IMG/VR virus record: IMGVR_UViG_3300021255_002539
Coordinates: 350,061 to 414,060 of that record
Strand: one strand, 5' to 3'
Source of the DNA: a virus
Lineage: Duplodnaviria; Caudoviricetes
DNA: 64,000 nt
Shown piece after piece: positions 11,651-21,043 of the stretch. The notes beneath the pieces are model-generated. The model searched no databases. It was not told where the DNA came from and saw nothing but the letters and a program-made list of their open reading frames with translations. Within the stretch, counting starts at the first letter, position 1, and the number at the start of each line of letters is the position of its first letter. A program made the translations under genes and the position numbers.

Positions 11651-11903
11651 ATCAAAAAGATTCGAGGGTTTTCTCGCCCAAGGCAAGTCCCATATCGCAT
11701 ATCAATGGGAAGCCCTTTCAGGCGAAGGACACTATGCTGTGCGTGTATCGTCCATGCCAACCCTATACCCAACATAGACACGACCCACCGCCTGCCAATC
11801 CATTACAAAAGATGTTCCGGAAACACCCATTGGTGGATATGGCTGCGCATTGGGAAGATGTTTAGGACAGATTTAACAAGCCAATCGGGATATAGAAGGA
11901 AAC

Positions 11904-11992
11904 TGGAGCCACAGGTCCGATTTGAACGGACGCGACCATAAAGGTGCGGGTTTACAAAACCCGTGCAATCGACCTGGCTATGCGACTGTGGC
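11904..11992 (-). tRNA. tRNA-Thr(UGU) with a long variable arm
   Basis: CGGGT-TTTGTAA-ACCCG anticodon arm; CCA end. Confidence 0.8.
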
Positions 11993-12000
11993 CTCGAAAC

Positions 12001-12075
12001 TGGTGGACCGCCGGGGAGTTCAACCCCGCTATCTGCCGTGCAAAGGCAGTGTAATAAGCGATATACGAGCAGCCC
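12001..12075 (-). tRNA. tRNA-Ala(UGC)
   Basis: CTGCC-TTTGCAC-GGCAG; G3-U70; CCA. Confidence 0.9.
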
Positions 12076-12108
12076 ATTGTAAATCTTGTTATGTTCAATT
12101 ATACGAAA

Positions 12109-12864
12109 TCATTTAAGTAGAAGTGAATCATTCAGAACTATCTTGCCATCTACAAAGTCCTTATACTGTTTCTCACCAATAAAGTAGATTCTTATTCCTG
12201 GATTGTTTTCCAAGACAAGACGCATCTTTTCCTTGTCTTTGTCTGAATAATAACCCTTTACTTCAACATACTCGTTTGTATCTGGTAAGTAGAAATCTGG
12301 ATTATAGGTTTTGCGTATACCATCTTTAATGTATTTCAATGTTTTGTTCCTAATCCAATTTATACCATTTGCTGTCAATTTGTTGGCAACATTCTCCTCC
12401 CAATGACCCCTTACAGTATATTCAACACCATCTAAATTCTTCACTTTGTACCAACCAACATCTTTGAATCCCACTTTACACGAATCAAGATATTTAGAAC
12501 GAATTTCAGAAAGTTTCTCCCGCGTTTCTTTGGTATGATGGAAAGTTCTTCCTTTCTGCGAGATTTTGTTTTTCTCTGCTATTTGTCTTACTTTTGTTGA
12601 TGTTTCACTGGTCAATCCCTTGTTCCATGCCATTCCCTTCTTGAATCCATGTTTCTCTTTTCTGTGGATTTGCATTTCGTTTCTTGTATGAAAAAGACCT
12701 CCACAAATTGTACACTTCCAAGTGTGTTGTTGCCTATTCACATTAAAATTGCACACATGGTGCTTTACTTGCTTCGCAATATACGAACATCTACAATGCT
12801 TGGAGCAGAACCTTCCGCTTCCATACGAGCCATCATGCTCGTTTCCACATACTTCACATATCAT
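12109..12864 (-). mobile_element. Free-standing homing-endonuclease-like gene (Zn fingers, NUMOD3-like motif, PD-(D/E)XK nuclease) inside the tRNA cluster
   Basis: CEVC..CSKHC, CTIC..H, WNKGLT, HTKETREKLS, YNPDFYL..VEVKG; low GC; TATAAATA upstream at 12913-12920. Confidence 0.75.
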
Positions 12865-12985
12865 AATCTTTTTACCTTTAGTTTAATGTCGTTGTTCTAG
12901 CAACGACATATCTATTTATAATTATACGAAAAGTTGCCTCCCAACTTGTGTTGGCTAGAACCATGACGGTTGGGAAGCGCAATGT

Positions 12986-13061
12986 TGGTAGGAGGGGTGG
13001 TAGTTGCAACCACGACCCATTGCTTATAAGACAATCGCTCTTACTGCTGAGCTACCCTCCC
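12986..13061 (-). tRNA. tRNA-Ile(UAU)
   Basis: ATTGT-CTTATAA-GCAAT; CCA. Confidence 0.88.
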
Positions 13062-13176
13062 GTTGAAATGAAAAAGTTGAAGCCCAGGAAATGGGTCAAA
13101 GACACCGGTTTTCTTCCGGAGTGAAATTCCCATCTTCGCCGTTTGGACATTTCTGCTTTACACCTCCTGGACTTCT

Positions 13177-13337
13177 GGGAGTTGCATCCAGTGCGTTCAA
13201 TCACTCCGCCACTATGCTGCGGGCTGCAACAAGGAGGGATTCAAACCCCCGGTCGAGTATCCTATATAGGAGCATGGGTGGCAGAAAGCAACCGGTGCGC
13301 GATTGCCACCACTCGACTCTGAATGCTGTTATCTCCC
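13177..13337 (-). ncRNA. YrlA-like circularly permuted tRNA mimic (candidate Y RNA)
   Basis: Order is long arm, T-arm (GGGGG TTTGAAT CCCTC), closed acceptor-like hairpin, D-arm; ends pair GGGAG/CTCCC and GCATTCAG/CTGGATGC. Confidence 0.72.
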
Positions 13338-13354
13338 ATTTAACTTGAAAAACT

Positions 13355-13429
13355 TGGAGCGAACGATGGGTGCTGCCCCCACTTGATCCAACCTGGCAGA
13401 TTGGTGTACTGCTGATGTACCACGTTCGC
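13355..13429 (-). tRNA. tRNA-Gly(GCC)
   Basis: CCAAT-CTGCCAG-GTTGG; UCCA. Confidence 0.88.
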
Positions 13430-13580
13430 ATTGAAATGGTGTGAGATTCGAGGACTCTTACCCCCATTACCATCAACTTGGAATGCGGACTTGACGTCCT
13501 AATCCACATTCTGCTTGATGACCAAGCGGACTCACCGGCCGAATGGCATTCTACCAAGGAGCGACCTTGGCATTGAAACT

Positions 13581-13663
13581 TGGAGCCCCGATACAAGTAC
13601 GACTTGATCCAATCCTCCATTACTGGGTGGGATTGACATTCCCCGTTATGGAATTACCGAAGC
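13581..13663 (-). ncRNA. CCA-ended tRNA-like RNA with an elongated anticodon arm
   Basis: GCTTCGGT/ATCGGGGC-TCCA stem; CAATCC...GGATTG long arm. Confidence 0.55.
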
Positions 13664-13687
13664 ATGTTGAAATCGTCTATATGAAAT

Positions 13688-13761
13688 TGGTTGTCCCGCC
13701 TGGGTTCGGACCAGGTCTAAGGGTATCAAAAACCCCTGTGCAGCCGATACACCACGGGACA
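13688..13761 (-). tRNA. tRNA-Gln(UUG)
   Basis: GGGGT-TTTTGAT-ACCCT; U1-A72; CCA. Confidence 0.9.
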
Positions 13762-13770
13762 TTTTGAAAT

Positions 13771-14027
13771 TGGCGGTGGCGTTGGGTTCGCACCAACAGT
13801 CTCGTGGGGCTTTGGGGAATTTTTAGTACGCACGAATGCAAGGCGAGAGCCTATAGTCAACTGAGGCAGAACTTGACATTCCAACCCCAATCCAAACTCG
13901 CCAACCCCAGGGTCACCTGGCTCCCTGCATGGAAGTTGTCAAGACCTCCACGCAACTTCTGTGACACTACTTGCTCCTCGTTCCCTTGGAACATGCCCTT
14001 TGTTCTTTTGTGTTTGAACTATCCACC
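13771..14027 (-). ncRNA. 257-nt tRNA-like RNA with a ~180-nt structured domain in place of the anticodon loop
   Basis: GGTGG/CCACC-GCCA acceptor, GTTC..GAAC D-arm, GGGC/GCCC stem, GTTGG-TGCGAAC-CCAAC T-arm. Confidence 0.6.
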
Positions 14028-14034
14028 ATTGAAA

Positions 14035-19677: not shown

Positions 19678-19685
19678 ATAAATCT

Positions 19686-19760
19686 TGGAGCATCGTACCA
19701 GTGCTGCCCTGGTCTACTTCAGCTTGGAGGGCTGACGGACGGCTGATGTCCCAACGATGC
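19686..19760 (-). tRNA. tRNA-Gly(UCC), C33 variant
   Basis: TCAGC-CCTCCAA-GCTGA; UCCA. Confidence 0.85.
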
Positions 19761-19768
19761 ATTTGAAA

Positions 19769-19856
19769 TGGTCCCGAGAGTGAGACTCGAACTCACACGT
19801 CTTTATGGGACAGCGGATTTTGAGTCCGCCAAGTCTACCAGTTCCATCATCTCGGG
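19769..19856 (-). tRNA. tRNA-Leu(CAA)
   Basis: GCGGA-CTCAAAA-TCCGC; CCA. Confidence 0.93.
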
Positions 19857-19863
19857 TTGAAAT

Positions 19864-19937
19864 TGGTCGGGGTGAGTGGAGTCGAACCACCGCCGTATGA
19901 ACCCAAATCATAAGTGCTACCGTTATACCACACCCCG
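19864..19937 (-). tRNA. tRNA-Pro(UGG)
   Basis: TATGA-TTTGGGT-TCATA; CCA. Confidence 0.92.
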
Positions 19938-19951
19938 TTTGAAATTGAAAA

Positions 19952-20160
19952 GGTCGTTCTCAAAGGCAATCTATCGTGTTCTGGACAACACGGGTCAATT
20001 ACTCCCTAGTTGCTTTCTCCCAGATACATGAATGTGTCTTACTAATTTACGCGCAGGCACAATGTTGCTCTAGACCAATCGCAGGCCACTTGTGGGTTTT
20101 CTGCCCAATCCGTGCTTCTTACACCATGGAGCAATTCGACTTGCCTTTGATTCATCGCAT
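19952..20160 (-). ncRNA. ~200-nt multi-stem RNA
   Basis: TCAAAGGCAA/TTGCCTTTGA and AATTGCTCC/GGAGTAATT nested stems. Confidence 0.5.
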
Positions 20161-20170
20161 GAAAAACCAA

Positions 20171-20250
20171 CTTTTACCTTGTTGGACTCGAACCAACCTC
20201 TCCTCCCCTGCCGGGAGGCGTACTGACCACTAATACGAAAGGTGTGGATT
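20171..20250 (-). ncRNA. tRNA-like RNA, paralog B
   Basis: TCCACACCTTTCGTATTAGTGGTCAGTACG-CCTCCC-GGCAG-GGGAGG-AGAGGTTGGTTCGAGTCCAAC-AAGGT; no CCA. Confidence 0.6.
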
Positions 20251-20305
20251 TCCATGCTAAATTGAAGTGGCTGTATCTCGCAGTCATGCCACATTGAAAT
20301 TGAAC

Positions 20306-20452
20306 AAGGCACTATTTGGATGACAAGTATCCAAAAGATTCCCAGCTCCGAACCGGGCGTTTCAATAACTAAGGCATAGACTGTCCATCTTGTCATAATG
20401 GTCATCTACACCCATAGCGGAGGCGTTTATCTCCTCAATCTTGTCGTGCCAT
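20306..20452 (-). ncRNA. ~145-nt RNA with complementary (kissing) loops
   Basis: GGCAC/GTGCC closing stem; loop TGACAAG is complementary to loop CTTGTCA. Confidence 0.5.
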
Positions 20453-20461
20453 GAAATCTAC

Positions 20462-20544
20462 TGGTAGCGGGTGACCGAGTTGCACGGTTGCTTTCGCACC
20501 AGGGTATGAACCTGGCAAGGGCGCTGCTCCCTAACACACCCGCA
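20462..20544 (-). tRNA. tRNA-Met(CAU), initiator-like 1:72 mismatch, small extra arm
   Basis: CCAGG-TTCATAC-CCTGG; CCA. Confidence 0.78.
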
Positions 20545-20667
20545 CTCTTGAAATAGCAAAACCATTCGCTTTAGACCCAAGGTTCTCATCTGAGTTTCCT
20601 CCAAGGGCTGACTCGCGCATGAGTATTCCCACATGGGGAACAGTCTTTCCATCTTTCTTTTCCTCTA

Positions 20668-20790
20668 TGTCAATTATCAAAGATCGCTTGTGATTGCCTT
20701 GCGTGGTTCAAGCAAACCTTGCTTTGCTTTAGCAAACCTTGCTTTGCTTTCACATCACATATTATACCACATTTGACTGGTATTTGTAAA
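20668..20790 (-). promoter_or_regulatory. Sigma70-type promoter with boxA
   Basis: TTTACA-N18-TATAAT (20790-20761); GATCTTTGATAA; 20-bp tandem repeat at 20711-20750. Confidence 0.75.
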
Positions 20791-20815
20791 GGGGGTTTGA
20801 AAAGTTTTTTGAAGT

Positions 20816-20892
20816 TGGTTGGGGTGACGGGGCTCGAACCCGCATCCCACGGTTTAAAGGACCGTTGCAGAATCCACTTTTGCTACACCCCA
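20816..20892 (-). tRNA. tRNA-Lys(UUU), C33 variant
   Basis: ACGGT-CCTTTAA-ACCGT; CCA. Confidence 0.85.
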
Positions 20893-21043
20893 TCTGTTGA
20901 AATCCACTAAAAGCGCAAGCTCTAGACCTGGGGCTAATGACTTCCTCCCAGGAAGACTCGCAATGCTCTACGCTCAGTCTTTACTTCTATATCCCACGAA
21001 GTTTGCTGGTTCTCGTGAACCCTCAAACATCTGTCCTAAATTC

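Follow-up and report, generated by a model that had tools for sequence, protein, structure and literature searches.

A phage tRNA array with a boxA leader and ends that probably pair as in ribosomal RNA operons

The window, the whole 64,000-nucleotide stretch analysed here, is part of a 414-kb rumen phage genome and carries on its minus strand a block of about 9 kb containing 27 tRNAs, a tmRNA and other RNAs. Read along that strand, the array presents a strong predicted promoter (P1), a boxA, a first leader arm (A1), a small local hairpin (H) and a second leader arm (B1); the last tRNA is followed by the trailer arms B2 and A2 and by a terminator (Table 1). A1 starts directly after boxA. The last tRNA, with its encoded CCA, ends at 11904, and B2 begins two bases further on. 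A terminator hairpin is located upstream of P1, which is conserved in the leaders of four relatives, and the next promoter after the array terminator is found at 11577. An independent ENA assembly is 100% identical to the array region over 10,423 bases, so this layout is not an assembly artefact. Genes neighbouring the array encode an endonuclease I-like protein and a DNA methylase, besides small proteins that have no Pfam hit. Genes of homing-endonuclease type are represented here by the endonuclease I-like gene and in relatives by GIY-YIG genes; a TnpB gene lies close to the trailer in one relative only (L067).

Table 1. Features of the tRNA array, in the order of transcription (coordinates of the window).
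Feature	Position	Strand	Basis or remark
Promoter P1, sigma-70 type, extended -10	21134..21163	-	11/12 consensus matches plus TG
Putative boxB-like hairpin 5' of boxA	21098..21113	-	Read from the sequence
boxA and 3' flank, 17-mer	21041..21057	-	Matches genuine rrn boxA regions; invariant in all four leaders
Leader arm A1, 5' strand of outer helix A	21029..21040	-	Exact complement of 11872-11861; unique in genome
Local leader hairpin H, between A1 and B1	21001..21028	-	Predicted in cofold; includes the leader word of the third pairing
Leader arm B1, 5' strand of inner helix B, 16 positions	20980..20995	-	15/16 complementary to 11902-11887; nearly invariant in four leaders
Remainder of leader 1	20893..20979	-	Two local hairpins common to the P2 leader
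First tRNA (Lys)	20816..20892	-	5' end is the expected RNase P detachment point for the leader
Internal promoter P2 and second boxA-like element	20669..20790	-	Without leader arms; no downstream complementary partner
Internal promoter P3 and third boxA-like element	15094..15182	-	Without leader arms; no downstream complementary partner
Last tRNA (Thr, anticodon tgt), CCA encoded	11904..11992	-	tRNA prediction
Trailer arm B2, 3' strand of inner helix B	11887..11902	-	Kept in six trailer variants
Trailer spacer, 14 bases, between B2 and A2	11873..11886	-	13/14 conserved in G001; deleted in L057, L058
Trailer arm A2, 3' strand of outer helix A	11861..11872	-	Complement of A1; genome-wide uniqueness, two compensatory changes
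Conserved trailer element, ~190 bases	11661..11860	-	Outside the helix; dispensable
Intrinsic terminator of the array	11617..11650	-	10-bp stem and T run; kept in relatives

The initial annotation had described two 12-base leader words with exact, nested complements in the trailer (21040-21029 with 11872-11861; 20995-20984 with 11898-11887), and all of these words were recovered at those positions. By a repeat search, the inner pair was lengthened to 16 positions, one of them a mismatch (20995-20980 with 11902-11887). Among 3000 dinucleotide shuffles of the trailer, none (0/3000) matched the observed pairing: a single 12-mer complement arose in 0.4% of them, and the best nested sum was 20, as compared to 24 observed. 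A scan of both strands of the 414-kb genome, allowing up to one mismatch, gave no complement of A1 other than A2; B1 has no exact complement there besides B2. When the leader was compared by BLAST with 14 kb, the two best-ranked hits were the trailer arms. Cofolding of leader and trailer gave a gain of -32 kcal/mol (z -7.3 against shuffled trailers), with helices A and B of 12 and 16 bp and a junction between them; each helix alone is below the ~20 bp (about two helical turns) typical of RNase III substrates. A third pairing proposed in the same annotation (21027-21018 with 11670-11661) is present with one G.U pair, but stays at chance level. The genome holds 62 matches of this quality, the leader half is the 5' strand of hairpin H, the pairing would cross helix A as a pseudoknot, and it is lost in the relative that was compared. 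Since the bases after boxA are complementary to those after the last tRNA, the two RNA ends probably pair as in an rRNA operon.

The ~190-base trailer element is conserved in the relative G001 with 1-base indels, and its structure signal is weak (z -1.25). In the contigs of run X10 that are devoid of it, position 11650 is joined to 11858/11860. Two other accounts of the matching ends, extremely improbable even when taken together, are a pure chance match, which the shuffles and the genome-wide uniqueness exclude, and a split non-coding RNA assembled from leader and trailer after tRNA excision. The split RNA had been suggested on first inspection; it would fit the conservation and partial structure of the leader and the trailer element, but found no support, as neither leader nor trailer matches any Rfam family at an E value of up to 1 and the six related trailers that are missing the element (L061-L063, L057, L058 and L067) still keep the arms.

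The boxA noted at the start of the array is real by comparison with bacteria, its 17-mer being identical to rrn boxA regions of several phyla, in 16S leaders or 23S spacers. In the four bacteria checked, the identical copy lies ~200 nt upstream of 16S (Hoeflea and Chelativorans, L115 and L110) or 66-110 nt upstream of 23S (Desulfobulbus and a Clostridia MAG, L113 and L078). The distance from the predicted P1 start to boxA is ~70 nt, and the same pattern recurs at 20790 and 15182. The position of the putative boxB-like hairpin is occupied by a hairpin of other sequence in L064 and L065, and by none in G001. No boxC consensus was found downstream of boxA in the leader, where A1 occupies the boxC position. 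No NusB gene was found in the phage genome, and boxA antitermination would therefore need host factors.

The array has, besides P1, at least two predicted strong boxA promoters, P2 (20790) and P3 (15182), and a phage-type promoter motif occurs repeatedly inside the tRNA block. These promoters contradict the original view of a single simple 9-kb operon, and many transcripts should therefore reach the trailer leaderless. Among the three boxA leaders only leader 1 has a downstream complementary partner; on the predicted promoter map, the leader arms are carried only by transcripts from the first promoter. RNase P cuts at tRNA 5' ends, and it would detach the leader early, which argues against one zipped 9-kb transcript. 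On the same side, neither arm is covered by the RNA evidence, which consisted of assembled contigs of RNA runs.

Matched leader and trailer ends were obtained for three lineages. The first is the window and the second G001 (L066/L008 with L004); for the third, L064 was combined with L067, the two being one and the same phage (99.98% identity over 10,261 bases). Helices A and B are both present in all three. In L064/L067 the trailer spacer pairs with the outer strands of hairpin H, giving a near-continuous duplex of ~42 bp (~21 + 21 bp) whose sole interruption is a 6-bp leader hairpin. The G001 pair is weak: it contains three mismatches, helix A is missing from its minimum-energy cofold, and the cofold gain (-15.2) is no better than that of shuffles. 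All four leaders have a hairpin at the position of H, with differing stem sequences (z -2.5 to -4.4), and both strands of one hairpin in the leader 1 remainder change together between relatives in the leader alignment.

The search for compensatory changes in related phages gave a divided answer. In the three matched pairs, a small sample, the arm substitutions comprise two compensatory double changes, four Watson-Crick/G.U changes and five disruptive ones (5 of 13 substitutions). The double changes (U-A to A-U, and A-U versus C-G) both fall within A1 pairs; by a rough estimate, ~0.1 such changes would be expected by chance. Swapping leaders and trailers among the three lineages revealed no overall cognate advantage. 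Such data could be explained by a functionless relic of an rrn-like or hairpin-like ancestor, or of an inverted partial duplication, whose complementarity survives because the lineages are young. We consider this unlikely. It is true that conservation prevails over covariation in the arms, that exchanged partners pair roughly as well as cognate ones, and that the G001 pairing is decaying; moreover, internal promoters would make the helix irrelevant to most transcripts. No trailer arms were found in three related array ends (L048-L050, L055 and L051), which lost them without visible replacement, and the helix is therefore dispensable. A relic does not readily account, however, for arms that are kept at 85-100% in the same genomes where adjacent non-coding DNA shows 70-80% identity, nor for the two double changes. 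The trailer arms have also outlasted three independent rearrangements directly beside them: loss of the spacer, loss of the 190-base element and the exchange of the last tRNA for another. Finally, an equivalent with unrelated arm sequences exists in a distant TAG-recoded phage (L052), where boxA is followed by an arm that pairs just before the terminator, with a cofold gain of -22.8 kcal/mol reached by 0/500 shuffles and 0/574 other windows.

Complementarity within one RNA strand is always an inverted repeat in DNA, and the ends could be recombination, inversion or protein-binding sites on double-stranded DNA. Gene conversion or exchange between such repeats could mimic both conserved arms and compensatory change. 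Across lineages the arms contain three A.C mismatches as against 4-6 G.U pairs; A.C being nearly as common as G.U, there is no clear strand signal. We nevertheless regard DNA-level repeats as very unlikely. Inversion sites, named at the outset as what could overturn the RNA reading, gain no support: no recombinase or transposase was detected by Pfam among the flanking and internal proteins at either end, and orientation and synteny are the same in all assemblies and relatives, with no inverted array among them. In addition, the spacing between the words is unequal (33 versus 14 bases), the promoter and boxA lie outside the repeats, and the arms adjoin boxA and a covarying hairpin, both of which are RNA-level elements.

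In every case the arms are directly followed by the terminator or by the dispensable 190-base element. Where relatives have a short trailer, the outer helix extends 6 bp into the boxA 3' flank and 13 bases lie between the arm and the terminator hairpin. These positions would suit a helix that ends specialised transcription, the trailer pairing beside boxA so as to strip the leader from the Nus-modified polymerase and allow a stop at the terminator; the rrnTAC complex has been reported to stay bound for minutes, bridging leader and polymerase. Antitermination of the rrn type acts mainly on Rho, however, and intrinsic terminators still work, so that there may be no need for such a reset; in the window, moreover, the helix stops short of boxA and is 190 bases away from the terminator. 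We judge an ending signal to be distinctly unlikely.

We favour, with moderate confidence and on the sequence features above, an array built like an rRNA operon, with a boxA promoter and a closing leader-trailer helix. From the processing stem of the initial annotation, this reading retains the boxA, the non-random conserved complementarity and the pre-16S-like topology, and gives up the one-operon view and the third pairing. Host NusB/NusE and other rrn antitermination factors would bind boxA on transcripts from the first promoter, and RNA polymerase would thereby become fast and resistant to Rho over the 9 kb of untranslated RNA. Despite the RNase P cut, the leader would stay tethered by these factors at the RNA exit channel, as proposed for rrnTAC, and the emerging trailer arms could anneal with the waiting leader arms. 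The product would be a three-way junction in which helices A and B (12 + 16 bp, or ~42 bp in the sister lineage) meet hairpin H; transcripts from internal promoters would take no part in it. Most likely, this closing duplex would be a substrate of host RNase III or a protected end structure. The 3' boundary of the last tRNA would thereby be set, and leader and trailer would be eliminated. No RNase III gene was found in the phage genome, and we infer cleavage of the duplex by this enzyme. Folding and excision of tRNAs need no such helix, an observation that counts against a function.

A bolder version, which we put forward tentatively and think rather unlikely, is that the hijacked rrn antitermination complex carries the detached leader for ~9 kb (about two minutes), with capture of the trailer in trans where the operon ends. 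Many unrelated large phages would then use the closing helix as a general device that couples the array end to RNase III processing or to polymerase release and termination. RNA looping would in that case span several times the distance found for any rRNA.

Should the pairing prove functional, large phages would copy the transcription and processing grammar of host rRNA operons, beyond tRNA genes, and this grammar (boxA plus closing leader-trailer helix) would serve the expression of long non-coding arrays. The array would offer a natural test case for rrnTAC "RNA looping" over 9 kb, with an RNase P cut between leader and body, and would help to explain how long untranslated phage transcripts escape Rho. 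The succession of boxA, arm and complementary arm before the terminator could also serve as an annotation signature for the true ends of phage RNA operons.

In the literature we found no description of the boxA and closing helix layout for phage tRNA clusters. The closest known systems are bacterial rrn operons, with their leader-trailer helices, boxB-boxA-boxC elements and rrnTAC, as described for E. coli pre-16S and pre-23S (PMC10250234, PMC11404451, bioRxiv 10.64898/2026.03.17.712431). The topology of a long leader-trailer helix broken by a leader hairpin is that of the pre-16S model quoted in PMC10250234. As in rrn operons, a promoter and then a boxA open an untranslated operon, the 5' strand of the helix comes shortly after boxA and its 3' strand just after the enclosed mature RNA, local leader hairpins interrupt the helix, and arm sequence varies while pairing appears to be kept. 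Unlike rrn operons, whose loops enclose one rRNA of 1.5-2.9 kb, the phage loop would hold 27 tRNAs, the tmRNA and other RNAs over 9 kb. These RNAs fold independently, with RNase P severing the first one from the leader, and extra boxA promoters lie inside the loop. The phage leader also differs in having no boxC consensus, the window helix is shorter (12 + 16 bp), and RNase III cleavage and Nus binding are predictions for the phage array.

In phage T4, tRNAs are processed by RNase P, RNase E and exonucleases. Neither a boxA nor a leader-trailer helix is known to have been described for T4. The likeness to the T4 tRNA cluster, which contains a Seg homing endonuclease (PMC2330249), lies in upstream promoters that co-transcribe the block and in interspersed genes of homing-endonuclease type. 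Lambdoid nut sites (boxA/boxB, N protein and Nus factors) resemble the array in that boxA RNA recruits host NusB/NusE against termination. As opposed to the array described here, a non-coding operon with an rrn-type boxA, nut sites need the phage N protein, serve protein-coding operons and have no partner at the operon end.

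The phage record (IMG/VR; 414,060 bases with direct terminal repeats, the window being its final 64 kb) occurs in public runs that originate from ruminant gut samples. From ~21160 to ~11620, the minus strand carries 27 tRNA genes, one tmRNA and numerous spacers without ORFs, and this array is identical in an independent ENA assembly. A Rfam search of positions 10500-22500 with E values up to 1 recovered tRNAs and the tmRNA only, leader and trailer remaining without a match. Several inter-tRNA spacers (for instance 19940-20660) are long, conserved and devoid of ORFs, and are likewise not recognized by Rfam. 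The sole credible protein gene within the array encodes a zinc finger and phage endonuclease I-like protein, which has more than 200 homologues in gut metagenomes; the gene is absent from this position in the related locus L061. GIY-YIG (SegE-like), DUF559 and NUMOD3 nuclease genes are found in relatives at different array positions, which suggests homing-endonuclease traffic. In one relative only (contig L067, 5698-6903), an IS605 OrfB/TnpB-type gene lies immediately 3' of the array terminator.

Coordinates of the leader, trailer and transcription signals of the tRNA array (window positions)
Feature	Position	Strand	Remark
sigma-70 promoter (first promoter)	21163-21134	-	11/12 consensus matches
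boxA-like 17-mer	21057-21041	-	array leader
Leader arm A1	21040-21029	-	outer helix A
Hairpin H	21028-21001	-	between A1 and B1
Leader arm B1	20995-20984	-	inner helix B
Internal strong promoter, then boxA-like element	20790/20685	-	within array
Internal strong promoter, then boxA-like element	15182/15110	-	within array
Endonuclease I-like gene	12864-12109	-	protein gene within array
-10-like motif	21561, 17926, 12931, 12108	-	in or beside array
Trailer arm B2	11898-11887	-	begins 2 bases past the last tRNA's CCA
Trailer arm A2	11872-11861	-	outer helix A
190-base element	11661-11860		
Intrinsic terminator	11650-11627	-	array end

The initial annotation had reported complementary words at the two ends of the array, all of which are located at the coordinates that it quoted. 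A1 with A2 and B1 with B2 are exact and nested, and the inner pair can be lengthened to 16 positions if one mismatch is admitted. When the trailer was shuffled 3000 times with dinucleotides preserved, 0.4% of the shuffles contained a single 12-mer complementary to the leader, and the best nested sum never exceeded 20, vs 24 observed. No further complement of either arm was found in a scan of the whole genome. Cofolding of leader 21045-20976 with trailer 11907-11852 predicts a helix A of 12 bp, hairpin H and a helix B of 13-16 bp, with a pairing gain of -32 kcal/mol (z -7.3 vs shuffled trailers). The third pairing that had been proposed as part of the same structure (21027-21018 with 11670-11661) was rejected as a chance match: 62 genome matches are of equal quality, it would cross helix A, and it competes with hairpin H, one strand of which is its leader half.

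No relative was found among INPHARED phages, and IMG/VR pattern scans gave one true relative, G001, which is syntenic and 70-85% identical in DNA; a further IMG/VR pattern match, L069, was discarded as a chance match inside coding DNA. In metagenome contigs, the protein scan was without result and the DNA pattern gave the chance match L047 alone. Additional relatives were reached in ENA and Logan assemblies via neighbouring proteins. Partners were searched with short-word BLAST and cofold gain; RNAduplex energies across whole loci were too noisy. Four distinct leaders (window, G001/L066, L064 and L065) all possess boxA, A1, hairpin H and B1, and the stem sequence of the hairpin differs in all four (z -2.5 to -4.4). 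B2 and A2 are kept in six trailer variants (window, G001, L061-L063, L067, L057 and L058), among which the last tRNA varies; a 14-base trailer spacer is missing from L057 and L058. The arms are absent, on the trailer side, from three related array ends (L048-L050, L055 and L051).

The arm-keeping trailers also bear on the suggestion that leader and trailer might be assembled into a split ncRNA once the tRNAs are excised. The 190-base element preceding the terminator is conserved in G001 and in sequencing run X6, differing there by indels of single bases, and two compensatory pairs are found with one relative, its predicted structure being weak (z -1.25). It is cleanly missing from the six related arm-keeping trailers other than G001 (L061-L063, L067, L057 and L058), and contigs of run X10 show the same deletion. 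Deletion of this element while the arms are retained contradicts the split ncRNA.

Since contigs L064 and L067 share 99.98% identity over a 10,261-base overlap, they are the same phage and provide a third leader-trailer pair; the L065 leader had no near-identical overlap with any fetched trailer and is not among the matched pairs. The L064/L067 cofold is a duplex of ~42 bp (21 + 21) whose only break is a 6-bp leader hairpin, and which also takes in 6 bp of the flank on the 3' side of boxA. Over the 28 core base pairs of the three matched pairs, two are altered on both sides and still paired (three lineages), where ~0.1 compensatory doubles would be expected by chance according to a rough estimate from the observed substitution density, and four switched between Watson-Crick and G.U. 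Five single changes disrupt pairing, three of them in G001, whose own pairing is weak (gain -15.2, no better than shuffles). When leaders and trailers were swapped among lineages in cofolds, cognate pairs had no advantage overall, as most of the arm sequence is conserved. Support from covariation for the predicted helix is thus real, if thin. A rival explanation is that the helix is a decaying relic.

The boxA is a genuine rrn-type element, as first proposed: the same 17-mer is widespread in bacterial genomes and lies ~200 bases before 16S or 66-110 bases before 23S genes at the four bacterial loci checked with Rfam. Host rrn leaders with this boxA do not run on into the arm sequence, so the phage arms were not copied from the bacteria concerned. 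In two gut MAGs, the exact 17-mer occurs on at least 13 contigs (labelled Azospirillum sp. 51_20) and at least eight (labelled Anaerovoracaceae bacterium), copy numbers far above expectation from rrn operons alone, and each copy follows a conserved short motif of its own.

The array had been described as a single 9-kb operon. A 13-14-base motif with a -10-like hexamer occurs in 11-15 copies in the 414-kb genome, where 0.01-0.2 would be expected. Most copies are on the minus strand, and they often lie directly upstream of genes or tRNAs; the motif is probably a phage-specific promoter. Because of this recurrent motif and the two internal boxA promoters, the array is not one simple operon. Among its promoter leaders, that of the first promoter alone has a complementary downstream partner.

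We also compared other phage arrays. L052, a 99,900-base ENA contig of a distant gut phage whose endonuclease is 59% identical and whose genes translate only if TAG is read as Gln, has a boxA-like element and, past it, an arm whose pairing partner immediately precedes the array terminator at a distance of 5.7 kb. These arms show no sequence relationship to those of the window, and the gain of -22.8 kcal/mol was attained in 0 of 500 shuffles and 0 of 574 other windows. In four boxA-bearing IMG/VR arrays (L040, L043, L044 and L021), boxA and the start of the first tRNA are 10-30 bases apart, which leaves no leader space, and a partner was not found. In L041, an ambiguous case, the two best leader complements follow the last tRNA, in crossing order and within an apparent antisense gene. 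The layout of boxA and closing arms is recurrent, not universal, among phage arrays.

In run X5, a metatranscriptome of the phage's own sample, contigs match internal array RNAs exactly, including ORF-less spacers (for example 20021-20210 and 14105-14610). None falls on 20656-21300 or 11500-12153, contig gaps being uninformative on leader or trailer expression. One exact X5 contig, with a depth of 31, links 16436 to 16032 as a circular permutation of 405 bases, which begins directly past the 3' terminus of tRNA-Glu(ttc), and a second joins 13347 back to 13080 in a Y-RNA-like region. Both contigs may represent circular RNAs or tandem artefacts; neither joint was seen in DNA runs X3, X6 and X10.

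The leader-trailer complementarity is real in its anatomy, non-randomness, conservation and boxA identity. It could be read at the DNA level, as inverted repeats serving inversion; an inverted array variant was not seen and a recombinase was not found. Most likely, the feature is an rrn-like leader-trailer helix that acts at the RNA level, is under selection and has been applied to a phage tRNA array. By analogy with published rrn work, host Nus factors would load at boxA and hold the leader at the polymerase, thereby presenting its arms to the emerging trailer; genes for RNase III and NusB were not found in the phage. Since RNase P must detach the leader from the first tRNA long before trailer synthesis, tethering or an encounter in trans is required, and this is the weakest step of the proposal. 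Pairing would yield either a duplex of the RNase III type or an end structure with a protective role. A competing explanation is that the helix acts as a termination-reset signal.

A full-text literature search returned papers on rrn leader-trailer helices and none that describe boxA or a closing helix for the tRNA clusters of phages; a survey of bacterial and archaeal leader-trailer helices does not mention phages. In pre-16S rRNA, a long leader-trailer helix is broken by leader helices and its 5' strand starts soon after boxA (PMC10250234). The predicted topology of the phage array cofold is the same.
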